Positions 1 through 11,939 of a DNA stretch of 51,736 nucleotides are shown here, one piece after another. Each line of letters opens with the position of its first letter. Position 1 is the first letter of the stretch. This DNA is from a virus (lineage: Duplodnaviria; Heunggongvirae; Uroviricota; Caudoviricetes). The translations under genes were made by a program, and so were the position numbers. Under the pieces are notes generated by a model. The model was not told the DNA's origin. It saw nothing but the letters and a program-made list of their open reading frames with translations, and did no database searches. Location of the stretch: the IMG/VR virus record IMGVR_UViG_2737471852_000002, positions 1 through 51,736 of that record. One strand, 5' to 3'.

Positions 1-789
1 TCAATATCTCTTATTAGGGTTTATTGAGTACTTTTTAAGCTTTGAAGCTACCCGACCAGCGTTACTGTTAGCATTGGTGACGTTGGTTTTTTCAGCTTCT
101 GTTAAGTCTGAATAATCCAGCTTCCAAGCCTTATTACATTTAATCTGAGCATCGAGAATATCATTTCTGATAGCTGGAGCGTAACCGGATACATCGCTAA
201 TATTCATTAATTCTTTGCACGATAGCATAGGCGCGTTATTGCGTTCAGTGGTCACGTTACCTGCATTCTTCTTACTGGTCACACCACCATCATTTGTGGT
301 AGCCGTTTTGCCAGTGGCTGCTGAAATATCAGTTTGCCCTACAATAACCTTAAAGTTGATTTCCTGAAAAGTTAGCTGGATTCTTAAGCCGTTTGAAATA
401 CCAACATCTTTAGAGGCTTTAAAACTAGTAATAATGGAATCGTCAATCTTAATCCCGTCTTTACAAATTACCGAAATAATCTGCTTCTGGTCACGCCAGT
501 TTTCAAGGGTGTCGATGAAGTTTTCTACTAATTGACCCTGACGAGTTAGTAATAAACTTCCTTCATAACCAACTACAACGACACCACTAATAGTGATTGT
601 TCTGGGTGCTCTTTGAACATTATCTGTGACGGTTTGCCCTGATTGCATGTTCTGTGTAGTTACCTGCATAGGACTATCAAATTCCATGTTTTCAGTTGCT
701 GATAAGGTTAAGAAGGCATCTACATTATCTCTTAAGTGGAAATAGATGCCATCTTTGCCACTGTAACGAATCTGATTAGAGTAAATCAT
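1..789 (-). CDS. phage tail-associated protein (possible distal tail protein) of the AT-rich module
   Basis: 262-aa ORF immediately downstream of the tape-measure-like gene on the same strand; AAGGAG 6 nt upstream of ATG at 789; no catalytic motif recognised. Confidence 0.4.
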
Positions 790-864
790 TAAATTCTCCT
801 TTGATTTCAAAGGCTTAGTGTATTTTAATCATTTTTAACCAAGCCTTTGATATATAAGTATTTT

Positions 865-945: not shown

Positions 946-3123
946 TCAATCATCTTCTGGGAATGATGAACTTAATAGCGTAGCTTCTGCATATTGGTCG
1001 TAGATATTACTGCTAAAGGTCATAAAGCTGGTTTCATCTGGTTTAATGGCAACTTCACCACCAAGTGAAACTTTCACAGGCTCCTGAATACGTTTGCTCA
1101 AAGCACTAATTTCATCTCTCAGACTCTGAATATCTGCGCTGGTTAATGCTGAATCTTGCTTAATGTTGTTTAACTCTGGATGATTGAATCTTGCAATATT
1201 CATTGTGGCATTGTTAAACAATTCACCCATTGAACTAAAAATTTTATTCCATCCTTCGTTAATCATATTCGGTTTATTAGGGTCACCAGAATACACAGGA
1301 TTAAAGTCACTACCCACACCTACCCCAGATGGATGCATATTAGCGTTTTTGACTACTTCCTGATTCATAAAATCCAGTGCTTTCTTCAATGCATATAAAC
1401 CAAGAGTGACGCCTCTGATTTGTGGAATCATTGAAGCTAATGCTAACGCTGTTTCATAACCGTCATCAGCATAACCGATTGCAAGAGCACTACCTACACC
1501 ACCAGCTACACCTTTCAGTTTTCCACCACCTTTACCAGTAGCTACCTGACCAGCCACCTGATTAGCTCTTGTACCTAACGTTGTGATTGCTCTTGTCAGG
1601 TTCATAACCCCTGTAGTAGCACTGAATAGTGTCTTTGCAGATAACGCTATAGCAAGACCTTTGACAAAATTGATAAAACCATCACCGACTTCATCAAGTA
1701 GTTTTCGTTTAGTGTCATCAAGGCTGTAATAGAGCTGCTTAACCTGTAAAATCCAGCCTTCAATGTGATTGTTAAAGATACGGATGTCATCTACACCAGC
1801 TTTAAGCATGTCGATAAGTCCACCGATAGCATCACCAGCGATAGAAGAACTCATCCCCATTTCACTAAGCAGGTTACTCAGGCTGGATAAGAAGCCGTTT
1901 AGCTCATCCTGTGAACCTGAGAAGATTTTCACCATCGTGTCATCCCAGTTGTTTGCTAACTTACCTAAAGCTGTCTGGGTGCTCTTAGCGACTTCAGCCC
2001 AGCCACCCGCTTTATCAATCATCAAGCCCATCTGTTTAGCGACTTTAGGAAGAGTATCAGCGGAAAGAATCTTCCCGTCTTTCATCGCTTTATCAAGCTC
2101 TGTAGCAGTCATACCCAATGCTTCAGCGAACAGCTTAAATGCACCAGCCATACGGTCACCTAGCTGACCACGTAATTCCTCAGCCTGAATCTTGCCCTTA
2201 GAAGCCATCTGCTCAAAAGCTTTCAAAATGCCGTTTAGCTCGTCGTTAGAAAGCCCCATTAAGCGACTCATAGCCGTTGCATTACCAAATAGCTCCTGTG
2301 TCTGTTCCTGTGACATAGAACCCTGAGCACCTGCTGCAAACTTAGCGTAGCTTGATAGTCCTTCAGAGATATTAAGACCTGTCTTGTCTGCTAGATTTCG
2401 AATAAATACCTCAGCCTCAGAGGCTTTATCACCAAGTACAAACTTAGCGGCTCTCTGTGCGGAATCTCGTTTAAGACCTGCATTCATAATGGCCTTGTAA
2501 GCGTTAAGAGCACCCATCACAGAGTAAAATGCACCAGATAACTTAATTGCATTGCTTGCAAGATTATTAAATGCGTCGCTTGTATTACTAATGCTGGTGG
2601 ATGTATGACCTCTGGCTTTAGCAATTGCTTCTCGGACTGAAGAATTTAACTGAGCCAACTTCTCATTGAATTTTGAATTATCCATCTGACCAGCTTTAGC
2701 AGATAGCCCGTAAAACTGAGATTTGATGTATTTCTGCAAAATAGGGTCAAAGCCTTTTAGCTTGCTCATATTCGCTGAGTAAGCTGCTGTGATTGCTCTG
2801 TTTCCGCTAATTCGTGGCTGTCTTGGTTGTTTTGGAGGATTAACAGTGTCATTAAATCTGGTGGCAAACTGAAATGCTCTTGTGTTTCTTGCTCTCTGTT
2901 CAATCTTGTCAAAGGTCTTATTAAACTTCCTTTCAAGTTGCCCTAAAGAACTTGTCAGATTACTGTCAAGTTGCTTGGTATCGACCTTAAACGCTCTATT
3001 CAAATTACGTTCAATTCTTTGTGCTGACTGCAAAGCTGCCTTTTCAACTCTTTGCAAGCCCTTAATAACGCTCTCGCTGAAGCCTAGCTCAACGATAAAA
3101 CTATCAACTTTAAATTGTGCCAT
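946..3123 (-). CDS. tail tape measure-like protein (AT-rich module)
   Basis: 725-aa ORF, long helical and coiled-coil-like N-terminal half, glycine-rich hydrophobic segments (GKGGGKLKGVAGGVGSALAIGY), followed by a tail-protein-like gene; GAGGTG RBS before ATG at 3123. Confidence 0.55.
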   Translation of the reverse strand: MAQFKVDSFIVELGFSESVIKGLQRVEKAALQSAQRIERNLNRAFKVDTKQLDSNLTSSLGQLERKFNKTFDKIEQRARNTRAFQFATRFNDTVNPPKQPRQPRISGNRAITAAYSANMSKLKGFDPILQKYIKSQFYGLSAKAGQMDNSKFNEKLAQLNSSVREAIAKARGHTSTSISNTSDAFNNLASNAIKLSGAFYSVMGALNAYKAIMNAGLKRDSAQRAAKFVLGDKASEAEVFIRNLADKTGLNISEGLSSYAKFAAGAQGSMSQEQTQELFGNATAMSRLMGLSNDELNGILKAFEQMASKGKIQAEELRGQLGDRMAGAFKLFAEALGMTATELDKAMKDGKILSADTLPKVAKQMGLMIDKAGGWAEVAKSTQTALGKLANNWDDTMVKIFSGSQDELNGFLSSLSNLLSEMGMSSSIAGDAIGGLIDMLKAGVDDIRIFNNHIEGWILQVKQLYYSLDDTKRKLLDEVGDGFINFVKGLAIALSAKTLFSATTGVMNLTRAITTLGTRANQVAGQVATGKGGGKLKGVAGGVGSALAIGYADDGYETALALASMIPQIRGVTLGLYALKKALDFMNQEVVKNANMHPSGVGVGSDFNPVYSGDPNKPNMINEGWNKIFSSMGELFNNATMNIARFNHPELNNIKQDSALTSADIQSLRDEISALSKRIQEPVKVSLGGEVAIKPDETSFMTFSSNIYDQYAEATLLSSSFPEDD

Positions 3124-3177: not shown

Positions 3178-3330
3178 GGTATATCTGTTCAGAAGATTTC
3201 ACGTAGCACATAGGATTCGATAGAAGACTATCTCATATACAAAAAAGGGAGAAACTACCGAATAATATCGATAATCTCTCCCCGTGTTATAGATTCGATA
3301 GAACCTATCTCATACACCCAACCAATTCTT

Positions 3331-3546
3331 TTAATGCATGACAAGATAATGTAGTTCCGTTTCACCTATGATTTGAGCATCAGAAGGAATACGGTCGATA
3401 CACCATTTTGGAATCTTGCGTGTTTTTGGTTTGCGTGAGGTGATAATTTGATGTTTGGTTTTAATTCTTAAGGCTGGCTTAGTTTGTAACTTTAAGTTTT
3501 CACAAACAGACTTAATAGTTTCATAGCGTTCTGTTAAATCAATCAT
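3331..3546 (-). CDS. hypothetical basic small protein
   Basis: 71-aa ORF, lysine/arginine-rich; no family recognised. Confidence 0.25.
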   Translation of the reverse strand: MIDLTERYETIKSVCENLKLQTKPALRIKTKHQIITSRKPKTRKIPKWCIDRIPSDAQIIGETELHYLVMH

Positions 3547-3569: not shown

Positions 3570-4274
3570 TCAAACAGCCTTGCTAAATTCTCGTGGAACA
3601 CTCAGAAAATCATTGAAGCTGATAATCTGTGCCAACTCTTGACGGTACTCCTTAGCCAGCGCTTGATGGTCACTAATCAGCTTAGCCAGTCTTGATTTCA
3701 GTAAATTAATCTCATTTTCTCTTGCTTTCATCAGTTTCTCTTTGGCAATTTCTTCAAGCTCAGCTTGTGATTTATCAGCAACAATTAGAGACAGTCGATG
3801 TGGCGCTCTAATGGCTCTTTCTGTACGAACAACTCTTTGACCTTCTGGTAAATCTGCAATCACTTTACCAATCTCTACAGGGTCATACCCCCAACCGTCA
3901 CGGTCTAGTCGAGAGAAATAAGCATAAGGATTGGTTTGAAGCTCCATCAAAATAGCCATTTCGTCAATTTCGTCTTCAAGCTTGGACTGAATTTTCTCGT
4001 AAACACTTCTCATTGCTTCTTGAGAGTCTTTAATAGCTTGGAAATATCGGCGTTGTAGCTTCAACTTCAAATCAAGTTCACACCGTTCGTTCATAGAAAA
4101 ATCAATTTCAACTCTTGGAATCTCGAGTGGTTCTGGTGGAATATATGGACCTTTATTTACTTCGTGTGATTCCCGCCAAGCTCTATCAAAAGATTCACGC
4201 AAACTTAATTCGTGAATATCAAGTGCACTTGGTCGGCTTTCAATAATCATTTCATTTTCATCACGGATAGCCAT
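3570..4274 (-). CDS. hypothetical protein
   Basis: 234-aa ORF in the AT-rich module; charged and helical; no family recognised. Confidence 0.35.
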   Translation of the reverse strand: MAIRDENEMIIESRPSALDIHELSLRESFDRAWRESHEVNKGPYIPPEPLEIPRVEIDFSMNERCELDLKLKLQRRYFQAIKDSQEAMRSVYEKIQSKLEDEIDEMAILMELQTNPYAYFSRLDRDGWGYDPVEIGKVIADLPEGQRVVRTERAIRAPHRLSLIVADKSQAELEEIAKEKLMKARENEINLLKSRLAKLISDHQALAKEYRQELAQIISFNDFLSVPREFSKAV

Positions 4275-4762
4275 TAATACCTTTCCTCTTCTAAGATAAT
4301 TTATGTTTCAGTTTTTAAAAAGCACACCTGACATCCTCGAACTTAGAAGAGGCTTAAAAGGCGTTTGCCAAGTATGCTTTTTAAAAACTGAATAGCCCTA
4401 GATAATTTCTTATAAAGGGCCATTCATAAGGTGAAGAAATTAAAACATCTAAAGGATTCAAACGAATGAACAAAGACTTTTCGAGATGACCTCTCAGGTT
4501 GTATAAGAGGCCATGTAGCGAAAAGCATTGCACCTTTCAGAATGTTCGGTATAGAACATACCTCACCAACTCAGAATATCCATCCATCGGATTATTGAAA
4601 GAAATAAGAGAGAAATTCTCTCTATAATTAAAATTATGTCATGCTTAAGGTTATTTGTCAACAGCTTTTTAACAGATTGGTAACATTAATTCTTATTTAC
4701 CGTATTACCTACCCAGCAACCAACAAATAGCCCTAGCAACGTCCAAGCAATTATTAAACCCA

Positions 4763-5086
4763 TTAGTGAATCCTCACAGAATCCGTCACCAGAATATTGT
4801 CAGCGTACAGGATTGTCACAGCACCTTTCAAAAATTGCTCTGGGGAAATACTGTATTTATTCGTTTGCTCGATAACCAATCTTTTCATGCTGCTGTCTGC
4901 AATTGGTAGCATCATTCGAGGCTCGTTAAACTCCACCGACTGAATAAAGTCAGAGATGTTTTCTGCATTATCGGCCATCAGCTTTAACAGCCTGTCAAAA
5001 TCAATTGTCACACCTGCATCAGTGAAGCTTTGCACCATCATAGCGGTGTCGCTATCAACGAAAATCTGTAGCGGGAAGTTGTTCAT
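4763..5086 (-). CDS. hypothetical protein
   Basis: 107-aa ORF; no family recognised. Confidence 0.35.
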   Translation of the reverse strand: MNNFPLQIFVDSDTAMMVQSFTDAGVTIDFDRLLKLMADNAENISDFIQSVEFNEPRMMLPIADSSMKRLVIEQTNKYSISPEQFLKGAVTILYADNILVTDSVRIH

Positions 5087-5108
5087 TTCTTAAAATCTCC
5101 TTTTTACC

Positions 5109-5240
5109 AGACCTCCTCAATCGCTCTGTAACGAGCTAAACAGTCTTTTTCAGGGGTAGCCTGTACAGTGGTATTACCCACCCTAAAATAAGATAGTTTT
5201 TTGCGTTAGAATGCGATTGAGAGCGTCTGAGAAGCTGTTT
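5109..5240 (+). repeat. about 120-nt repeated element, copy B1 (paralogue at 6796-6905)
   Basis: shared 5' block agacctcYtcaatcgctctgtaacgagYtaaa and 3' block ttgYgtYagaatgcgRttgagRgcgtct; ctcaatcgc / gcgattgag can pair as a long-range stem. Confidence 0.5.
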
Positions 5241-5242
5241 TT

Positions 5243-5530
5243 CTAATTTCTCTTAAAGTCTCGGACTTGCATAAGATTTTTTGGTCTGGTATCGGCTCTG
5301 TTACCATTTCGATGGATAATTTGCTTATTGGATTGATAGCCATGATAAAGGAACCAGACAACATATTTCACATAGAATGTGTATCGACCTATATTAAATG
5401 TTTTGTTGCCGTAGTCGTCGGTATTTATCGTGACTGACCCCCCATCAGACCAGCACAGGGAATCACTGGATTCATCATAGATAAGGTGTTCTGCAAAATA
5501 TCTTCTAACATCTTCATGCCAAGGTTTCAT
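5243..5530 (-). CDS. HNH endonuclease (small HNH_3-type)
   Basis: 95-aa ORF with GYxxN...IHRNGNRADTRPKNL resembling the H-N-G ... DNR ... NL core of phage HNH nucleases; last gene of a 4-gene overlapping operon. Confidence 0.5.
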   Translation of the reverse strand: MKPWHEDVRRYFAEHLIYDESSDSLCWSDGGSVTINTDDYGNKTFNIGRYTFYVKYVVWFLYHGYQSNKQIIHRNGNRADTRPKNLMQVRDFKRN

Positions 5531-5742
5531 AAAACCTCCTCACCCCAATAACCTAATTCAATCTTATGACGTTCAAACCATTCCGGTTTAACTGCTGTTT
5601 TCAGTGTTTCATTTGGGCCAATGGCTTTAATGAAAATATCTTTTGAGTTATGGATGTCACCGAATCCGTTTCCTTTAATCAGGAGGTCGGAGATGTAGCG
5701 AATCATTTTATCTGTGTGGTATTCAAAGGTAACGCATAGCAT
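5527..5742 (-). CDS. hypothetical protein, translationally coupled to the HNH gene
   Basis: 71-aa ORF; its stop overlaps the HNH start by 4 nt. Confidence 0.35.
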   Translation of the reverse strand: MLCVTFEYHTDKMIRYISDLLIKGNGFGDIHNSKDIFIKAIGPNETLKTAVKPEWFERHKIELGYWGEEVL

Positions 5743-6020
5743 CAGACCTCCAGAGACAGTTTGCGAATCTTGATGCTCAATAGACGGGCAATATCAATTT
5801 TAAAGCTGTTAAGTGCCTTCAAAGTATCTAAAGCGTCCGTAGTAATTCGGATGTGCTTACGACCTTTAGAGACTGGATATTTAAGTAAATCCGACTCAGT
5901 GACTTCTTTAGCGATTGCAAGTTGCATAACAGTTTGATGAGGCAAGTTAGTCGCTCGTTTAATTCTGGTAAGCTCGTTAAAAGCTTCCTCTGAAATACGG
6001 GTTAATGTGTGTTTATTCAT
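5742..6020 (-). CDS. hypothetical protein (possible small DNA-binding protein)
   Basis: 92-aa ORF abutting both neighbours; basic and helical. Confidence 0.35.
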   Translation of the reverse strand: MNKHTLTRISEEAFNELTRIKRATNLPHQTVMQLAIAKEVTESDLLKYPVSKGRKHIRITTDALDTLKALNSFKIDIARLLSIKIRKLSLEV

Positions 6021-6021
6021 T

Positions 6022-6579
6022 TTAAAATTCCTCTGTAACTAAATACGGGTCAAACTCGAAATCTGGTTGCTCGTTTTCCATTGGCTCAATATTCCCAACG
6101 GCAACATGATGTTCAACAATACCAATTAGCTTTGCACACATTACAGCAAGCAATGCACAATATTTATCGCTTGGTAATTCATAACTAAGTCTGGTTGCTT
6201 GTCGCTGAAGATAATTTGTCACGGTAGCTGAGTTAATTTCATCAAGATTCTTTAGAATATAAAATAGCTTTCTGTTGTATTTTGGGTGACCTTCGCTTCT
6301 GCAAAATCCGATAATTACATCTTCAAACTTGCGTGATAATTGCTCGTAAGAATCAACGTTAGCCAAATAATTTTTGATGCTGTTCTGGGTGCTCTTTCTG
6401 GTTGACATATAACGACTCCTCGGTGTAATTGCCCGAATTACTTCGTCAATGCCTTTGCGTTCTGCTCTGGTGAACTTGGGTACTTCGTGGCTGGTGGGGT
6501 TGTTTGTGTAAGCGTAGGAGTTGTGCTTGTTGCGTTCTCTCGATGCCTGAAGCATCGCTCTAAATTCTCTGTCGTTCAT
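6022..6579 (-). CDS. hypothetical protein, first gene of the 4-gene operon
   Basis: 185-aa ORF; the 6022/6020 junction and tight packing indicate co-transcription. Confidence 0.4.
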   Translation of the reverse strand: MNDREFRAMLQASRERNKHNSYAYTNNPTSHEVPKFTRAERKGIDEVIRAITPRSRYMSTRKSTQNSIKNYLANVDSYEQLSRKFEDVIIGFCRSEGHPKYNRKLFYILKNLDEINSATVTNYLQRQATRLSYELPSDKYCALLAVMCAKLIGIVEHHVAVGNIEPMENEQPDFEFDPYLVTEEF

Positions 6580-6663
6580 TCATAAGCTAGTCCTTATAAT
6601 TGTTAATTCTCTGTTAACTTATATAGACAATACTAGCATTTTCAAAGACTAATGTCAAGCATT

Positions 6664-6696
6664 TTTTAACATTTCATTAACATCTGTGGTATAATG
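6664..6696 (+). promoter_or_regulatory. predicted sigma70 promoter with extended -10
   Basis: TTAACA, 18-bp spacer ending in TG, then TATAAT (tgtggtataatggg). Confidence 0.4.
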
Positions 6697-6795
6697 GGTT
6701 TATGGGGAGAGTAAAATATGAGGCGTGGCTATGAGGTTTATTCGATAAACCGAATCAACTATGAGAGTGGTCACATGGTTATTGCATTGCACACA

Positions 6796-6905
6796 GACCT
6801 CTTCAATCGCTCTGTAACGAGTTAAATGGCCTCTTCAGGTCAACTCATAAGGTCAGGTACTTTTTTGTGTCAGAATGCGGTTGAGGGCGTCTCACAAGGA
6901 AATTT
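6796..6905 (+). repeat. about 120-nt repeated element, copy B2
   Basis: paralogue of 5109-5240; the two changes within the candidate stem (gcggttgag vs gcgattgag) convert A-U pairs to G-U wobble pairs when read on the + strand. Confidence 0.5.
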
Positions 6906-6906
6906 A

Positions 6907-7083
6907 ATGGTAAATCTCCCTCCTGAACTGGGGTCACCTGATGTATGGGCTGGTGGAGGTATTGGACTTATTGCAGGTCTGCTACTTCGTTACGTCCTTG
7001 TCAGAGTGCTTGTTGTCTTTAAACTGTTCGGTCGTACATGGACGCTTGACCTTAAGGATAACGACCATACAGAACCCCGCTAA
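6907..7083 (+). CDS. possible small membrane protein
   Basis: 58-aa ORF with AAGGA RBS and a hydrophobic core (GGGIGLIAGLLLRYVLVRVLVVF), downstream of the promoter at 6664-6696 and element B2. Confidence 0.25.
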   Translation: MVNLPPELGSPDVWAGGGIGLIAGLLLRYVLVRVLVVFKLFGRTWTLDLKDNDHTEPR

Positions 7084-7200
7084 ACTCCCTTCAAAACCCC
7101 CTGTACGTGATGGTATAGGGGTATCTTTAGCATTTTGTGCTATCTATTAAAAAATAGCTTGACAGAACAGGAAAGCTGTATCTATCAAGCATTCACCTCT

Positions 7201-7385
7201 CTGACAGTAATTTCTAAAAGTTCTTATTTTTCAATAAGTTGTAATTAGCCATATATAGAGAACTGACAAGTCTCTTCACAGTTAACTCTGTAACCTTAAC
7301 AGTAACTTCTAAAAATACTTATTTTTCAATGAGTTGTAATCACCCAATATATAAGACTGTCCAGTACCTTCACAGATAACTTCAA
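7201..7385. repeat. imperfect tandem duplication of about 90 bp
   Basis: acagtaaYttctaaaaRtNcttatttttcaatRagttgtaat ... cttcacag occurs twice head to tail. Confidence 0.6.
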
Positions 7386-8472
7386 GCCTTCTTAGCTATC
7401 CACTAAGCGGGAGAAGAGCGACACCCAAGAAAGGGAAGCTCCCTTCTTAACCGACCTTCTTAACCAGCCCTTTACGTTATTCGTTCACAGTGTTGATAAG
7501 TGGTTTTGCCCTCTGTTTCTGTTATCATCGGGCTTACCTTATCAGGGCTTTGAAATGTCCCTGTAACTTCCCTCTTAACGGGAGAGAAAGAACATAGTGA
7601 CCCCAAGCGAAGCGCCCCTCTAAAAGATTTTTTAGCTATTTTGTTTAAAAACATATCAAACGATACATTTTATTGATTTAGGTCAAAGACAAAAGCATTG
7701 ACAAAATGGTATGATTGTTCACATAGCCCTCTCTTAACAGACTTTTTAAGAGCTTTTGAGAAGTTTGTTAAACAGACACTCTTTCTGGAGTGTTGTCTTT
7801 TACTTAAGAGGCTTGTTTAGGTAACTCTCAAGACATTTCTTAAGACTTCACTGTTAAGATAGAACCTACCTTCGGTTTCATGGTTCTCTTCCTCCCGTTA
7901 AACAGTTCTTCCTAGCAACTTCATAGTTCTCTGTCAAGTATCTTTGAAGATTCTATCAAAACCCTCTAAATCTGACCTGATATAGATGCTGTGAAGGCAT
8001 GTTCTCTAGGTCTGTGTAGCTCACTAAGCGAGAGAGGGGATATGGTGACCATAGGGGAACCCCTCCTACTTAAAAGAACTATTTGATATTATTGTGATGG
8101 TTGTTTAAGATGCAACTGTGCAGACACCTTAACGGTTTCTCTACACCCCTTATAGTCTGGCGAGGTAGGGTACGGCTAGGTAGGGTGTGGTTGGGTCTGG
8201 TATGGGTGGATTGTCGTAGCCACGTTAAAAATCGACTTGTAAAGGGACTCTTTCGGGAGTCCTTTTTAGTTTGTATAAAATCTGTACAGTAACTTTTCAG
8301 ATTCTGAAAATTTTTATAAAAAATAATCAGGCCTCTTCTAAGTCTCTTCAACCAAATCTTTCAAAAATATCACAAGACTATGTATACCTGCTAAGTACCC
8401 GTCACTACGCCTAAGTGGTCCCCTTTGCAAAAAAGCCAAATATCAGTCACATCCATGTAACTATTCAGTAAC

Positions 8473-9021
8473 TTATTTAGCAAGTCTGTAATAAGTTGCT
8501 CTAGAGATTCCTAACTCTTCCTGAATCTGCAACCTCGTTTTACCTTGTGAAATAAGCATCTTTACAGTCTCTGAAGAAGCTTTTACGGGTCTCCCCATGT
8601 GAACCCCTTCAGCTTTAGCACGTTCAATACCAGCCTTTCTACGTTCACTGATAAGGTCTTTTTCAAGGTCAGCTAAACCAGCCATCATAGTAAGCATTGC
8701 TCTACCGATTGGTGTTAATAAGTCGAAACCTTCACGCAAAGAAACAACTCTCACACCTTTAGACTGTAGTGACTCCACGTTAGAGAGCACATCAACGGTA
8801 TTACGCCCTAAACGGTCAATAGCTACCACAACTAACGTATCGTCACACCTTACATAGTTCATCATGTCTCTAAAACCATCTCTGCTGGTGGCCTTTGTAG
8901 TTCCTGAGACAGCCTCATCAATAAACCATTTATCGACCTTGTGAACCTTCTCTATCTGTAGTTTCTGGTTGTCTACAGTCTGGTCTTGTGTTGATACCCT
9001 GCAATAACCAATCACCGCCAT
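8473..9021 (-). CDS. small serine recombinase (resolvase/invertase family)
   Basis: 182 aa; N-terminal VIGYCRVSTQDQ with catalytic Ser context, C-terminal HTH (RLQIQEELGISRATYYRLAK). Confidence 0.85.
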   Translation of the reverse strand: MAVIGYCRVSTQDQTVDNQKLQIEKVHKVDKWFIDEAVSGTTKATSRDGFRDMMNYVRCDDTLVVVAIDRLGRNTVDVLSNVESLQSKGVRVVSLREGFDLLTPIGRAMLTMMAGLADLEKDLISERRKAGIERAKAEGVHMGRPVKASSETVKMLISQGKTRLQIQEELGISRATYYRLAK

Positions 9022-9032
9022 ACATCCCCCTT

Positions 9033-9160
9033 AGAAGTCTCAAAAGTTAGTCTCATAAGTTTAGCTGTCTCATAATCCAAAAACAACCTTTTGAGACTAC
9101 TTGAGGGTGCATTCTACCGTTACGTTGAAAGTGTCTCAAAAGGAAGTCCTTTTAAGACTG
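9033..9160. promoter_or_regulatory. cluster of direct and inverted GTCTCA(A/T)AAG motifs; candidate res/crossover site
   Basis: motif at about 9037, 9051, 9068, 9131 and inverted at about 9088 and 9149; 9133-9158 forms a 26-bp palindrome gtctcaaaag-gaagtc-cttttaagac; directly upstream of the recombinase gene. Confidence 0.4.
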
Positions 9161-9802
9161 GTTATGAAGGAGCTATGAGGTTGATTCCTAGAACTAACCG
9201 AATCAACTATAACCATCACCTCCTAATATTCACGTAGGAAATCGTTAAGGGTTTTATAGTTACACCATGTGACCAACTGCATGAATAGCGTTATATACTC
9301 CTGTATATAGCACTTTTCTAGGAGTCGAGAGAGGAACGACTAACACGATACAGTTTACCCTGAAAAGAGACTTCACAGATTCTCTATATATTTCAATAAG
9401 TTATGCTAAAAAGAGACTATACCGATACTGTATAGAATCTGTGTAAAACTGCTTAGATACTTGGGAAAATGCCTTTAAATTGCATAATCATAGGGGTTGG
9501 AACAAGCCCAACTACACCTGATAAAGCCTGTTATTAACAGGTCTCTTAGAAAACCGAATAGACTTCATTCAAGGGTCATTGAAGTCATAATCATTTCAGT
9601 AGAAAAACCAGGTCTCGATTTTAAATGCAAATAGCAATCATATTCAATAAGGCAAGACGATCAGGATCAGTGAAAATGTCATTTTTGGCGTAATTACCCT
9701 TACTTTATGCATGGCCTCAACAAAGACATCATCTTTCCGTTGCAGATCTTCGCCCTTTCAAATAACGTACTTTACAACTTTCCCGAACAAGGAGTTGTGC
9801 CC

Positions 9803-10217: not shown

Positions 10218-10766
10218 TCAGCTAGCTGGAAACTTTTTATACAGAGTTGAGAGCCCTACTCCATACGTTTTTGATACGCTTTGTCGTGATTCACCGGTTG
10301 CCATCCGCTCCCCCATTTCCCGCCATTGCTCATCCGTGAACTTAGGCCTGCGACCACCAACTCGCCCTTTTGCCCTGGCTACGGCCAGCCCTGCTAAGGT
10401 ACGTTCGCTATTAAGATCAGATTCATATTGTGCTGCGGAAAGGATGTTACGAAAGTTATAGCGGCCGCTGGCTGTTTTGAGATCCACGCCATCGGTAATA
10501 CTGCGGAAGTTGATACCCTTTTCCTGTAACTGCTGGAACATCAACAGCGCATGCAGAACGTTGCGGCCTATCCTGTCCAGCTTCCAGACCACCAGTTCAT
10601 CCCCCGGCTGCATAGTGGCGATCAGCCGTTTTAGAACCGGCCGATTCGATTTCCTCCCGCTGGCATGCTCTTCAAAAATTTTCTCACAACCCGCTGACTT
10701 GAGCGCCGTTAGTTGCAATTCAGTGTCCTGGTGGTTTGTTGATACTCGGGCATAACCGTAAATCAT
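10218..10766 (-). CDS. pin: Pin/Gin/Hin-family DNA invertase (serine recombinase)
   Basis: MIYGYARVSTNHQD N-terminus, resolvase catalytic domain and C-terminal HTH; AGGAGA RBS; immediately beside the invertible tail-fibre segment. Confidence 0.9.
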   Translation of the reverse strand: MIYGYARVSTNHQDTELQLTALKSAGCEKIFEEHASGRKSNRPVLKRLIATMQPGDELVVWKLDRIGRNVLHALLMFQQLQEKGINFRSITDGVDLKTASGRYNFRNILSAAQYESDLNSERTLAGLAVARAKGRVGGRRPKFTDEQWREMGERMATGESRQSVSKTYGVGLSTLYKKFPAS

Positions 10767-10825
10767 GGGATTTCTCCTGTTATGAAAACAGGAGAAACGG
10801 CGAAGCATCACCAGATTTTTGATGG

Positions 10826-10851
10826 TTATAAAAAAGGTTGGTTTGGGAGAA
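10826..10851. other. 26-bp invertase crossover site (hix/gix-like), left
   Basis: TTATAAAAAAGG-TT-GGTTTGGGAGAA; one half-site is the reverse complement of TTCTCCCAAACC, close to the gix/hix half-sites as I recall them. Confidence 0.7.
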
Positions 10852-11334
10852 GGTTCGGCATTACCCGTTGGCGTGCCTGTTCCGTGGCCTTCCGCCACTC
10901 CGCCAACAGGCTGGCTGAAATGCAACGGGGCGGCTTTTTCTGCTGAAGAATACCCGGAACTGGCAAAGGTTTACCCGACAAATAAATTGCCTGATTTACG
11001 CGGTGAGTTTATTCGTGGCTGGGATGATGGAAGAGGGATTGATACTAACCGTAGCTTGCTTTCGTCACAGGGAGATACCATTCGGAATATAACAGGCTTT
11101 ATAAATGAAGTTAAAGGCACCATTGATACAGCAACTTTCAGGTTACAGACTGGTACTGGTGCTTTTGCCTTAGCATCTCAAGCTACGCGAAATATCTATA
11201 ATAACCTAGGCACATATGAAACAAAAAATACCCCTTACACAGGATTCAGTTTTGATGCATCCAGGGTTGTACCAACAGCATCAGAGAATCGCCCTCGAAA
11301 CATTGCATTTAACTATATCGTGAGAGCAGCATAA
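10852..11334 (+). CDS. alternative tail-fibre C-terminal cassette, currently in the unexpressed orientation
   Basis: begins at the crossover with ...GLGEGSALPVGVPVPWP...GWLKCNGAAFS...YPELAKVYP...DLRGEFIRGWDDGRG, the classic variable C-terminal domain of Mu S / lambda Stf-type fibres; no start codon of its own. Confidence 0.7.
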   Translation, partial: GSALPVGVPVPWPSATPPTGWLKCNGAAFSAEEYPELAKVYPTNKLPDLRGEFIRGWDDGRGIDTNRSLLSSQGDTIRNITGFINEVKGTIDTATFRLQTGTGAFALASQATRNIYNNLGTYETKNTPYTGFSFDASRVVPTASENRPRNIAFNYIVRAA

Positions 11335-11939
11335 TGGATAAAGCAATATTAAATAGTGAGCTTATTGCTACAAAGTCGGGGGATATTACCGTTTATAACT
11401 ATGATAGTGAGACGCAGGAATATATTTCAGCTTCAACTGAATATCTTGCCATTGGTGTCGGTATTCCTGCATATTCCTGTTTAGATGCCCCTGGCACATA
11501 TAAGGTGGGTTATGCTATCTGTCGTTCTGCAAATTTTAACTCATGGGAATATGTGCCAGACCATCGCGGTGAAATCGTCTATAGCACCAAAACTGGAGAG
11601 TCAAAAGAAATCACAGCTCCGGGTGATTACCCTGAAAATACCACAACTATCGCCCCGTTAACACCATACGATAAATGGGATGGTGAGAAATGGGTGACCG
11701 ATACTGAGGCACAGCATAGCGCCGCAGTAGACACGGCAGAAGCACAGCGTCAGTCACTGATTGATGCTGCAATGGCTTCCATCAGTCTGATTCAGCTGAA
11801 ATTACAGGCCGGACGGAAGCTGATGCAGGCAGAAACAACCCGGCTTAACGCCGTGCTGGATTACATTGACGCGGTGACGGCAACAGATACCAGCACCGCG
11901 CCTGATATTATTTGGCCTGCTTTCCCTGAGACTGATTAA
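11334..11939 (+). CDS. tail fibre assembly protein (Tfa/U-type) paired with the alternative cassette
   Basis: 201 aa, ATG overlaps the cassette stop; C-terminal LQAGRKL ... LDYIDAV ... WPAFPE typical of Tfa proteins. Confidence 0.75.
   Translation: MDKAILNSELIATKSGDITVYNYDSETQEYISASTEYLAIGVGIPAYSCLDAPGTYKVGYAICRSANFNSWEYVPDHRGEIVYSTKTGESKEITAPGDYPENTTTIAPLTPYDKWDGEKWVTDTEAQHSAAVDTAEAQRQSLIDAAMASISLIQLKLQAGRKLMQAETTRLNAVLDYIDAVTATDTSTAPDIIWPAFPETD

Follow-up and report, generated by a model that had tools for sequence, protein, structure and literature searches.

A probable homing-endonuclease remnant, in truncated form, retained in the promoter-proximal part of an operon of an ~11-kb low-GC integrative island

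Four small genes packed end to end, the last of them encoding an HNH-like protein of only 95 aa, raise the question of what such an arrangement represents: a toxin-antitoxin-like or defence-like module, as the initial annotation proposed, or a stretch of mobile-element genes that has taken up a homing endonuclease. We examined this locus in a window of 51,736 nucleotides, which is the whole stretch of DNA that was analysed. The features on which the argument depends are given below in window coordinates.

1..810, minus strand, Dit-like baseplate protein, homologue of the product of the gene after the tape-measure gene in Felixounavirus
946..3123, minus strand, tape-measure protein of 725 aa, homologous to Felixounavirus gp45
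3246..3283, minus strand, strong terminator-like hairpin (16 pairs then a T-run), close to the tape-measure gene on its upstream side
3331..3546, minus strand, small ORF of 71 aa in the gap between p234 and the tape-measure gene, where a ~70-aa gene is annotated in E. coli islands
3570..4274, minus strand, p234, conserved coiled-coil island protein
4763..5086, minus strand, p107, conserved island gene downstream of the cassettes
5087..5242, minus strand, conserved intergenic spacer from the variable cassettes to p107, with matches at query positions 1-133 only and no terminator-like site
5243-5265, minus strand, read-through tail of HNH95 (RDFKRN), the matching DNA being non-coding in other islands
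5243..5530, minus strand, HNH95, truncated HNH_3 domain, the HNH-homologous part being ~5266-5530
5527..5742, minus strand, p71, accessory cassette
5742..6020, minus strand, p92, core gene, single-chain tandem ribbon-helix-helix DNA-binding protein
6022..6579, minus strand, p185, core gene, predicted all-helical, with an acidic C-terminal tail
6601..6617, minus-strand reading, TTAACA-N5-TTAACA repeat, candidate operator, just downstream of the leftward -10
6630..6658, minus strand, leftward sigma-70-type promoter (TTGACA-17-TAGTAT, extended TG), both hexamers invariant in 9 island copies
6666..6682, minus strand, TGTTAA-N5-TGTTAA repeat, candidate operator, upstream of the leftward -35
6666..6695, plus strand, divergent rightward promoter, a promoter match (TTAACA-18-TATAAT)
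6907..7083, plus strand, conserved predicted membrane peptide of 58 aa, downstream of the rightward promoter
7084..8472, ORF-poor conserved island segment, containing a 95-bp tandem repeat (7204-7381)
8473..9021, minus strand, Hin/Gin-type DNA invertase, accessory island cargo

The four ORFs (185, 92, 71 and 95 aa) were listed by the ORF caller on the minus strand at the coordinates first reported, and the start/stop overlaps claimed for them are present: p185 and p92 are separated by a single nucleotide (TAA-A-ATG), p92 and p71 overlap by one (TGATG) and p71 and HNH95 by four (ATGA). Upstream of each start, inside the final codons of the preceding gene, lies a Shine-Dalgarno sequence (GAGGAA, GGAGG and GAGGAGG), and the consensus cassette junction is GGAGGTnTrATG. 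Because a Shine-Dalgarno sequence and a stop/start overlap coincide at every junction, translational coupling of the four genes, as originally suggested, is probable. Of 5426 complete E. coli genomes, 376 contain the 1.65-kb block at 80-95% identity and 224 of these carry at least 80% of its length. In a pairwise comparison of the window with E. coli APEC O18 the dN/dS values were 0.28 for p185, 0.12 for p92, 0.05 for p71 and 0.14 for HNH95. The four ORFs are genuine, conserved genes under purifying selection and not chance ORFs.

The view that the HNH gene closes the operon had to be abandoned. No terminator-like site was found between the HNH95 stop (5243) and the co-oriented p107 (5086-4763), so transcription probably runs on into p107, and in other island copies the HNH gene lies in the middle of the array. 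A megablast search of the block against phage and plasmid records returned zero matches; the operon is therefore not part of any sequenced phage or plasmid.

The HNH assignment of the last protein, made at first from a motif, is confirmed by a match to Pfam HNH_3 (PF13392) with E=1.8e-8 and 34.3 bits, the curated cut-off being 24.8 bits, and by matches to PHROG HNH endonuclease families. Of its two sister alleles, HNH90 reaches 22.7 bits, under the cut-off, and p96b gave no match to the HNH_3 profile. HNH95, HNH90 and p96b (95, 90 and 96 aa) are 21-43% identical to each other, with 43% between HNH95 and HNH90, and share the same truncation, all ending ~5 residues past the NL motif. The VL46 island encodes a full-length HNH-AP2 endonuclease whose N-terminal 100 aa share 30% identity with HNH95; this endonuclease in turn shows 46% identity to Felix O1 ORF95. 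The phage matches of HNH95 are only 25 and weak, the majority being Felixounavirus homing endonucleases, and no close homologue was found in phage records. A sequence search of HNH95 against the PDB gave noise only, and I-HmuI of the Bacillus phage SPO1 (1U3E) was reached only by a profile that includes the phage HNH-AP2 proteins.

Both the N-terminal beta-rich region and the HNH_3 core of HNH95 align with I-HmuI and Felix O1 ORF95. In the alignment to the phage HNH-AP2 proteins and I-HmuI (D74-H75, N87 and N96, a numbering verified against the 1U3E alignment) the active site reads I-H...N in HNH95, I-F...N in HNH90 and R-L...N in p96b. The general-base histidine is present in HNH95 as H73, aligned with I-HmuI H75 and with the DH motif shared by Felix O1 ORF95, Xop411 p17, EC6 gp087 and I-HmuI, and the structural asparagine is kept (N85); the histidine position is occupied by Phe in HNH90 and by Leu in p96b. 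The aspartate at the position of I-HmuI D74, reportedly assigned as a metal ligand in the I-HmuI structure paper, is missing from all three alleles (Ile72 in HNH95, Ile in HNH90 and Arg in p96b), and the C-terminal helix bearing the second metal ligand (I-HmuI N96) is cut off in HNH95. With its 95 aa, HNH95 has no attached DNA-binding module (AP2, NUMOD or helix-turn-helix), whereas its full-length relatives have AP2. The DNA coding for its final 6-7 residues has a 98% identical counterpart in variant D, one of the island arrangements given below, where this sequence is non-coding.

As judged from these alignments, the mini-HNH goes back to an HNH-AP2 homing endonuclease of the Felix O1 type, of which it is the N-terminal catalytic domain in truncated form. 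Where alleles of HNH and p71 are divergent enough to permit an estimate, dN/dS ranges from 0.05 to 0.30; these values well below 1 indicate selection on the truncated HNH protein and not neutral decay. Because the DNA-binding domain is lost and the active site is incomplete (HNH95) or destroyed (HNH90 and p96b), HNH95 is most likely a domesticated accessory protein, non-nuclease or weak-nuclease, and neither a toxin nor an active homing enzyme. It may keep residual nicking activity, given that it passes the HNH_3 threshold and has both H73 and N85. The cos-phage packaging HNH proteins of the HK97 gp74 type, of ~100 aa, are like HNH95 in size, have no DNA-binding domain of their own and act with partner proteins. 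They belong, however, to the classic zinc-binding HNH and not to HNH_3, and always stand beside terminase and portal genes, which are absent here.

The three upstream proteins had been regarded as unassignable, and this holds for p185 and fails for p92. Searches of p185 against Pfam, PHROGs, PADLOC and NCBIfam gave no usable assignment, and its AlphaFold2 model, with a pLDDT of 50, was unusable. An exhaustive HMMER search places it in an orphan family with 19 representatives, mostly fragments, among 1.84 billion proteins; in a scan of one genome per species its gene was found only in Escherichia albertii, and IMG/VR yielded two uninformative contigs. The acidic C-terminal tail (PDFEFDPY) is invariant, and p185 adjoins a p92 homologue in every locus covering both genes.

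The p92 protein consists of two beta-alpha-alpha units in one chain, a tandem ribbon-helix-helix pseudo-dimer, whose beta-strand residues H4, T5, T7, R8, R58 and I59 are invariant or nearly so across alleles that are only 31-58% identical overall. It shares this single-chain class with TraY of the F plasmid, DndE, VirC2 and the archaeal virus regulator AvtR, although sequence similarity to them is negligible (5-15% identity) and the DndE models score below threshold. In contrast to the setting of TraY and DndE, neither a relaxase nor a dnd gene lies nearby, and the DNA target of p92 is a presumed one. In 9 islands the promoter region and its TGTTAA repeats are nearly invariant; the TTAACA repeat at 6601..6617, invariant in these 9 islands, is the inverted partner of the 6666-6682 repeat, which overlaps the -35 hexamer of the rightward promoter. 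The joint invariance of the beta-strand residues and of the repeats is the one basis on which we infer that p92 is a putative regulator of the divergent promoter region, binding the flanking TGTTAA repeats. On the other side of this region, the 58-aa membrane peptide shows dN/dS values of 0.12-0.23 and is found in nearly all related loci. A search of Rfam gave nothing, either in the whole window at gathering thresholds or in 6560-9800 at E up to 1, and a ~50-nt GGGAGA...CCCCTC motif present in three copies folds no better than shuffled sequence (z -1.0 to +1.0).

A check of co-occurrence across genomes, suggested in the initial annotation, revealed no fixed four-gene module; only p185 and p92 are always together. 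Six arrangements were distinguished in E. coli: p71-HNH95 (variant A), HNH90-p128 (B), p128 only (C), HNH90-p66 (D), HNH90 followed by ~600 bp without annotation (E) and a different early region (F). HNH90 and p128 occur together in 20 E. coli genomes, p128 only in ~100 and HNH90 only in ~45. In all 37 metagenome loci that are informative, p185 adjoins the ribbon-helix-helix gene; the HNH gene is present in 26 and absent from 11, and a p71 homologue occurs without HNH in 3 (variant H). p66 is a p71 homologue (71% identical) that lies downstream of HNH90 in other islands or stands without any HNH, so that the order of the HNH and p71 genes is reversed between variants A and D. The last 5 codons of p71 (GEEVL) came in together with the HNH cassette. 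Core status among the four genes belongs to p185 and p92 only; p71 and the mini-HNH are optional, reorderable cassettes. Their variable co-occurrence argues against a toxin/antitoxin or effector/immunity pair, and p71 was rejected as an immunity partner of the HNH protein, each being found without the other.

The HNH gene is polymorphic for presence and absence with clean junctions (absent from variants C and H, present in A, B and D), and it stands where the conserved part of the operon gives way to the variable one. As in the I-HmuI and Felix O1 ORF95 type of element, HNH95 was inserted between genes as a free-standing unit that has a ribosome-binding site of its own; in the T4 and Felix O1 groups, homing-endonuclease genes sit free-standing between the genes of phage operons in just this way. 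The initial annotation had stated that a match to a typical homing endonuclease inserted into a conserved gene, together with upstream genes found without it, would speak against its reading, and this is largely what we see: the kinship is of the Felix O1 type and the upstream core genes occur without the HNH gene, the insertion being nevertheless intergenic.

Could the gene then be an active free-standing homing endonuclease that spreads among island copies, and possibly Felix O1-like phages, and has no function for the island? The precise intergenic junctions of the polymorphism, the Shine-Dalgarno sequence carried by the insert, its position at the operon boundary, the homology to Felix O1-type HNH-AP2 proteins and the full-length copy in the VL46 island all favour this explanation, which we nonetheless consider unlikely. 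An intact, complete enzyme of that kind was not found, HNH95 being truncated with degenerate catalytic residues; three divergent alleles share the truncation and have neither AP2 nor the helix equivalent to that of I-HmuI N96, the Asp ligand is in none of them and the His is lost in two, the dN/dS values point to selection on the truncated protein, and no phage record contains a close homologue.

By analogy with TraY and VirC2 as relaxase helpers, p92 could give the mini-HNH its sequence-specific binding, so that both would act as a DNA-processing module. The nick would serve replication or packaging of the island, or would be placed in the genome of a helper phage, as by NixI of PLE. This we also judge improbable: p92 is in every island, including the ~30% without HNH, in this window p71 separates the HNH gene from p92, and HNH90 and p96b cannot be nucleases because Phe or Leu stands at the His position.

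The surroundings of the block define the element to which it belongs. It is flanked by the tape-measure/Dit-like gene pair and by the invertase, beside the host gene yciI, and E. coli carries the same architecture, accompanied by a large serine recombinase, at three sites (tonB/yciI, wrbA/ymdF and dinB/lafU). In related loci the recombinase adjoins the Dit-like gene, which gives the element an integrase of its own and defined ends, as in a satellite; in the present case the window opens with the end of the Dit-like gene and does not reach the recombinase. The ~11-kb architecture recurs in Escherichia, Salmonella, Citrobacter and Shigella, and island marker genes are present in 472 of the 5426 complete E. 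coli genomes (~9%). Within this ~11-kb low-GC integrative island, the four genes come first after the promoter of the leftward operon. Taken alone, the cluster is a modest one, an operon of small mobile-element genes in which a truncated homing-endonuclease remnant has been retained.

The GC content of the island is 39.5%, compared with 52% in the flanks and 38.9% in Felixounavirus EC6. The Dit-like protein shows 72% amino acid identity to Felixounavirus, with matches in at least 250 phage records, and 510 nt of its gene are 90% identical to phage EC6. In tblastn the tape-measure protein is 34% identical to that of Felixounavirus over residues 1-478, with patches of 76% nucleotide identity, and its gene has a dN/dS of 0.28; the other island proteins gave no tblastn match in EC6 beyond these two. 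Two shared tail genes and the GC content suggest a tie between the island and virulent Felix O1-like myophages, in the manner of a satellite or an anti-phage island. The Omnitron-like prophage in the same window (~10.2-45 kb) was rejected as a partner of the island, as its only counterpart to an island protein is an unrelated invertase. Two host-free contigs were found, in both of which an assembly artefact, caused by a repeated or multi-site element, is possible: one of 11,233 bp has a 55-bp terminal overlap (a circle of 11,178 bp) and a permuted gene order, and one of 23,009 bp consists of two tandem units of 11,477 bp that are 99.99% identical. No capsid, terminase/packaging, lysis or replication genes were recognised in the island.

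A decaying prophage, left over from a temperate relative of Felix O1 and now without a role, its four residual early genes included, would account for the finding that only two structural genes, and none for replication, capsid or lysis, can be recognised, and RefSeq annotates the genes as phage proteins. Against such a remnant, which is very improbable in our view, stand the recurrence of the ~11-kb architecture, its recombinase intact, at three chromosomal sites and across four genera, purifying selection on every gene tested, the host-free circular and tandem contigs and a nearly invariant promoter region.

Least probable of all is a toxin-antitoxin or abortive-infection module in which HNH95 would be a toxin restrained by p71 or p92 and freed upon phage infection: tight coupling on a mobile phage-related island, the common antitoxin layout of a ribbon-helix-helix protein (the fold of p92) upstream of an effector and the catalytic His kept in HNH95 would suit it, yet variants B and E have HNH and no p71, variant H has p71 and no HNH and variant C has p185-p92 with neither, the HNH/p71 order flips between A and D, p92 is present with or without HNH, HNH95 has neither the Asp metal ligand nor the C-terminal metal-binding helix nor a DNA-binding domain, and the sister alleles are maintained despite loss of the catalytic His. 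PADLOC-DB 2.0 gave no meaningful match, the four proteins yielding one hit, between HNH95 and a methyltransferase model, at the level of chance (E=0.015) and the eight island proteins, in addition, a faint LeoBC match for p234 (E=0.12). What the initial annotation had observed (the packing, the probable coupling and an HNH domain, of the HNH_3 family) was sound, and its toxin-antitoxin or defence reading of the four genes is not sustained. The phage-related mobile island around them makes a role in phage conflict plausible at the level of the island.

We return to the operon of small island genes, and propose, as an account that we consider fairly probable, a promoter-proximal island operon with a p92 regulator, shuffled cassettes and a domesticated mini-HNH in an island tied to Felix O1-like phages. 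The promoter at 6658-6630 would read leftward through p185, p92, p71 and HNH95, and probably on into p107. Each gene would supply the Shine-Dalgarno sequence of the next in its final codons, which would provide coupling and at the same time a shared junction for the exchange of cassettes, and p92 would regulate the divergent promoter region through the TGTTAA repeats. A homing endonuclease would have entered this operon as a free-standing intergenic insert, of which only the truncated form survives, under purifying selection.

Whether the island itself is a previously undescribed family of satellites or anti-phage islands of the virulent Felix O1-like (Ounavirinae) myophages in Escherichia, Salmonella, Citrobacter and Shigella is a more tentative matter, a possibility that we put forward with some doubt. 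In this scheme infection would lead to excision of the island by the serine recombinase and amplification of circles or concatemers, its diverged tape-measure and baseplate proteins would hijack or sabotage tail assembly of the helper, and the mini-HNH, as a domesticated homing-endonuclease remnant comparable to CapR, would manipulate the helper. The island would then be the enterobacterial counterpart of the Vibrio PLE-ICP1 pair. A literature search for a satellite of Felix O1 or Ounavirinae, or for a tonB-yciI island, found no description.

Several likenesses bear on this scheme. Like the satellites PLE (ICP1, Vibrio cholerae; PMC8096241) and PICMI (Vibrionaceae; PMC10803314), the present element is a small island, here of ~11 kb, with a large serine recombinase, with GC content and some genes matching a virulent myophage, with possible host-free circular or tandem forms and with a homing-endonuclease-derived protein. 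Unlike them, our island has no recognised replication initiator or capsid-remodelling gene and carries tail genes (tape measure and Dit-like). To our knowledge, no satellite family carrying such tail genes has been described. Defence genes for tail assembly inhibition (Tai) are encoded by PICIs, P4-like satellites and prophages (PMC11364771), and in a similar way the island, which encodes two diverged early tail-assembly proteins, may disturb tail assembly of an infecting phage; Tai proteins, however, are not homologues of tape-measure or baseplate proteins, and interference by the tail-gene copies of the island is hypothetical. In the Vibrio cholerae PLE satellite, a homing endonuclease has given rise to CapR, a DNA-binding repressor (Netter et al. 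2021, PMC8096241). Like CapR, the mini-HNH derives from the homing-endonuclease type of the interacting phage, here a presumed one, lies on a small island with a large serine recombinase and has an apparently non-nuclease role. The endonuclease families of the two differ, and CapR keeps DNA binding, in contrast to the mini-HNH, which is a retained remnant of the nuclease domain with the DNA-binding domain lost.

The mini-HNH is a clean natural example of the late life cycle of a homing endonuclease, and its retention reverses the case of CapR, as it is the nuclease domain and not the DNA-binding domain that is kept under selection. The conserved Shine-Dalgarno/stop/start junction shows how small cassettes reshuffle inside one operon. 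At a larger scale, there is an exchange of tail genes between virulent Felix O1-like phages and an island that ~9% of complete E. coli genomes carry. Should this island be a satellite or a dedicated defence element, it would influence the host range of the Felix O1-type phages employed in Salmonella typing, biocontrol and therapy, and it would offer a tractable model, in E. coli and Salmonella, of satellite parasitism on a lytic phage.

The four ORFs of the initial annotation were confirmed at their positions, all on the minus strand, between two divergent promoters and a conserved spacer:

6666-6695, plus strand, divergent rightward promoter, TTAACA-18-TATAAT
6658-6630, minus strand, leftward sigma-70-type promoter, TTGACA-17-TAGTAT
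6579-6022, minus strand, p185, ORF of 185 aa
6020-5742, minus strand, p92, ORF of 92 aa
5742-5527, minus strand, p71, ORF of 71 aa
5530-5243, minus strand, HNH95, ORF of 95 aa
downstream of HNH95, conserved spacer of 156 bp

All four are real genes. Of 5426 complete E. coli genomes, 376 contain the 1.65-kb block at 80-95% identity, and pairwise dN/dS between the window and E. coli APEC O18 is 0.28 for p185, 0.12 for p92, 0.05 for p71 and 0.14 for HNH95. The HNH-like motif described in the 95-aa protein is borne out by a Pfam HNH_3 match (E=1.8e-8, 34.3 bits against a curated threshold of 24.8), and HNH95 also matches PHROG HNH families. The leftward order is p185, p92, p71, HNH95, spacer, p107, p234, a 71-aa ORF, a hairpin, and the tape-measure and Dit-like genes; a single leftward sigma-70-type promoter precedes the four ORFs, their junctions are coupled, and no terminator-like site was found in the 156 bp between HNH95 and p107.

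The junctions of the four genes read TAA-A-ATG, TGATG and ATGA, with a good Shine-Dalgarno before each start, located within the final codons of the upstream gene. The tight coupling noted initially is accounted for by a motif, GGAGGTnTrATG, common to all junctions in the variable part of the operon (5740-5745, 5527-5545 and 6018-6035, with equivalents in the related island loci L001-L013), in which a Shine-Dalgarno inside the last codons is followed by a stop/start overlap. Because this motif is shared, many small island proteins end in ...EV or ...EI. The junction looks like a recombination-friendly cassette boundary, which would provide both for gene coupling and for easy cassette reshuffling.

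A survey of the annotated E. coli copies and of 46 metagenome loci, 37 of them informative, demonstrated that p185 and a p92 homologue are always adjacent, followed by these arrangements (HNH90 is a sister allele of HNH95, p66 a p71 homologue, and p76 and p128 other cassette genes):

p71-HNH95: this window, APEC O18 and 12 metagenome loci
HNH90-p66: 9 metagenome loci, p66 being 71% identical to p71
HNH90-p76-p71-like: 3 metagenome loci
HNH90-p128: 2 metagenome loci
p128 alone, after p185-p92: 8 metagenome loci
p71 homologue alone, after p185-p92: 3 metagenome loci, one of which (L044) was checked ORF by ORF

Of the 37 informative loci, 26 have HNH and 11 lack it, and the identity of p66 to p71 means that the HNH/p71 order is reversed in the HNH90-p66 islands. 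Rather than a fixed module, the four genes are a constant p185-p92 pair followed by variable, reorderable p71/HNH cassettes. Among E. coli variants, KFu019 carries HNH90 and then about 600 bp of unannotated sequence, while TUM1881 has p185 swapped for a 310-aa HTH_36 protein but retains a homologue of p92, together with p96b, a third HNH-like allele. Of the 170 E. coli genomes with the HNH90/p128 block, 20 have both genes; extrapolation from an evenly spaced sample gives about 100 with p128 only and about 45 with HNH90 only. When the p71-HNH95, HNH90-p66 and HNH-less p71 arrangements are compared, the HNH95 insert starts directly after the p71 Trp66 codon, carries its own Shine-Dalgarno and lengthens p71 by five codons. 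The insert ends some 23 nt short of the HNH95 stop codon; beyond that point the DNA shares 98% identity with a non-coding stretch of the HNH90-p66 arrangement, so that the 6-7 C-terminal residues of HNH95 (RDFKRN) come from read-through.

HNH95 is 43% identical to HNH90 and about 21% to p96b, and each of the three aligns over its whole length with the N-terminal half of HNH_3-AP2 homing endonucleases from phages (Felix O1 ORF95, Xop411 p17 and EC6 gp087), and also with the full-length 174-aa HNH-AP2 protein of the VL46 island, which itself shares 46% identity with Felix O1 ORF95 and 30% with HNH95. Phage matches to HNH95 are only 25 and weak, the majority being Felixounavirus homing endonucleases. 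A profile made from mini-HNH and phage HNH-AP2 sequences reaches I-HmuI (1U3E), in the register D74-H75 ... N87 ... N96. In I-HmuI, D74, H75 and N96 have catalytic roles; at the corresponding positions HNH95 reads I72-H73 ... N85, HNH90 I-F ... N and p96b R-L ... N. All three end about 5 residues past the NL motif and consequently lack the helix of the N96 ligand and the whole AP2 domain. Since three divergent alleles share the truncation with low dN/dS, the truncated form must be old and maintained by selection. The mini-HNH is neither a fresh pseudogene nor a complete enzyme, but a shortened homologue of Felix O1-type homing endonucleases with a depleted active site. The VL46 gene (L002, E. 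coli, 23052-23576) is annotated as an AP2/ERF transcription factor and occupies the accessory slot that in this window holds the invertase; other islands have a Dam methyltransferase in the same region, with or without invertase.

An active endonuclease, homing at present, would fit the presence/absence polymorphism of HNH, but is improbable given the truncation common to the alleles, the missing DNA-binding domain and the purifying selection. The resemblance of p92 to TraY, VirC2 and DndE suggests a nickase guided by p92 to island or helper DNA; alleles without the His could not fill this role and islands without HNH also have p92, and we give the proposal little credence.

A regulatory role of p92 is suggested by the promoter region, nearly invariant among the nine islands compared, in which a TGTTAA-N5-TGTTAA pair lies upstream of the leftward -35 hexamer with an inverted partner downstream of the -10. 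In the predicted DNA-reading strands of p92, H4, T5, T7, R8, R58 and I59 are invariant or nearly so, while the alleles are 31-58% identical overall. We infer that p92 is the regulator of the divergent-promoter switch. By sequence p185 belongs to an orphan family: close clusters number 1090 in Enterobacteriaceae, clustering at 50% leaves only 19 representatives, and Pfam, PHROGs, PADLOC and NCBIfam gave no family match; p185 is predicted to be helical with an invariant acidic tail, and its structure model was unusable. The TUM1881 protein in the p185 slot (L014, E. coli, 5493-6425) matches DnaD_N weakly and has a long tail of acidic character; this HTH_36 protein hints that the first operon gene may have an origin-binding or replication-related function. 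No relatives of p71 were detectable beyond the island.

The block lies in a segment of about 9.5 kb (window 1 to ~9450) of 39.5% GC, the rest of the window being 52% GC, and has no match in sequenced phage or plasmid records. Its other features are:

right of the ORF-poor segment, Hin-type invertase, then host yciI
7084-8472, ORF-poor segment of about 1.4 kb, no convincing ORF, 80-88% conserved between islands
6907-7083, plus strand, predicted 58-aa membrane peptide, hydrophobic core MVNLPPELGSPDVWAGGGIGLIAGLLLRYVLVRVLVVFKLF..., downstream of the rightward promoter
downstream of the spacer, minus strand, p107, p234 and 71-aa ORF in leftward order
4633-4661, minus strand, near-consensus promoter TTGACA-17-CATAAT, upstream of p234
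3283-3246, minus strand, strong hairpin terminator with 16-bp stem, directly upstream of the tape-measure gene
minus strand, tape-measure protein of 725 aa (TMP_3, PHROG 4036)
minus strand, Dit-like baseplate protein of 269 aa, after the tape-measure in leftward order

The hairpin before the tape-measure gene and the promoter before p234 suggest that the tail genes are expressed conditionally, through antitermination or a phage-dependent promoter. The 58-aa peptide, found in almost every island copy with a dN/dS of 0.12-0.23 that points to purifying selection, could be a small membrane effector. Within the ORF-poor segment are a tandem repeat of 95 bp (7204-7381) and, at around 7400, 7575 and 8020, three occurrences of a GGGAGA...CCCCTC motif of ~50 nt. 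The segment matches nothing in Rfam, and its folding is not better than that of shuffled sequence; it may serve as an origin or have a regulatory role.

The same architecture is annotated at three E. coli chromosomal sites, tonB/yciI (as in this window), wrbA/ymdF and dinB/lafU. E. coli copies are bounded by a 506-547-aa serine recombinase adjoining the Dit-like gene or the invertase, which in this window would be expected immediately to the left of position 1. Of 5426 E. coli genomes, 472 have the p234-p107 marker, and p185 and p92 homologues are reported also from Salmonella, Citrobacter, Shigella and E. albertii. The related loci are L001, L002, L007-L014 and L019-L064. Two metagenome assemblies hold the island on contigs without host flanks: L058 (ERZ506742 NODE-633, 11,233 bp) has a 55-bp terminal overlap and circularly permuted gene order, giving an 11,178-bp circle, and L025+L026 (OOBX01000469.1, 23,009 bp) consists of two tandem 11,477-bp units, 99.99% identical. 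These could be excised circles and concatemers, or assembly artefacts. No description of the island was found in the searchable literature. A dead prophage remnant is very unlikely in view of the architecture conserved at several sites and in several genera, the selection on each gene tested and the host-free circular and tandem contigs. An Omnitron-like prophage (~10200-45000; Citrobacter phage Omnitron is 95.9% identical over 75% of a 24-kb query, window 12000-36000) is integrated directly beside yciI and the island. It carries a separate invertase at 10218-10925 and tail-fibre/assembly genes at 10819-11939, and shares nothing with the island save an unrelated invertase.

The tail genes point to phages of the Felix O1 type. 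In at least 250 Felixounavirus and related records, the gene after the tape-measure gene encodes a protein about 72% identical to the Dit-like one, and window 256-765 (510 nt, Dit-like gene) is 90% identical in DNA to the Felixounavirus phage EC6, whose GC content is 38.9%. The tape-measure protein shares 34% identity with EC6 gp45, and at the nucleotide level there are patches of 76% identity, one of them in the first 136 nt of the gene. Both tail genes show dN/dS of 0.15-0.28, indicating purifying selection, and EC6 has no homologues of other island proteins.

A toxin-antitoxin or abortive-infection module, akin to the toxin-antitoxin- or defence-like module first suggested, is highly improbable, as HNH has no obligate partner, its order with p71 is reversed in some islands, its active site is degenerate and PADLOC gives no meaningful match.

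We propose that p92 autoregulates the divergent promoters, and that HNH may have been a free-standing homing endonuclease on arrival, acquired in the course of contact with phages of the Felix O1 type, and then been kept as a domesticated accessory protein, comparable to PLE CapR, a domesticated homing endonuclease retained in such a role (PMC8096241). The island itself would be a satellite or anti-phage element that uses its copies of the tape-measure and Dit-like genes to take over or disrupt the assembly of helper tails, with Tai systems (PMC11364771) as a conceptual parallel. We are highly confident of the operon, cassette and degeneracy parts and regard the composite explanation, which includes the island role, as moderately probable; the island-level role itself is tentative, at best approaching even chances, and a PLE-like satellite of Felix O1-type phages is doubtful. 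The cluster contains known kinds of element, namely a homing-endonuclease remnant, a tandem ribbon-helix-helix regulator and small mobile-element cassettes; the surprise is the host island, a common ~11-kb enterobacterial element that has recently exchanged tail genes with virulent phages of the Felix O1 type.
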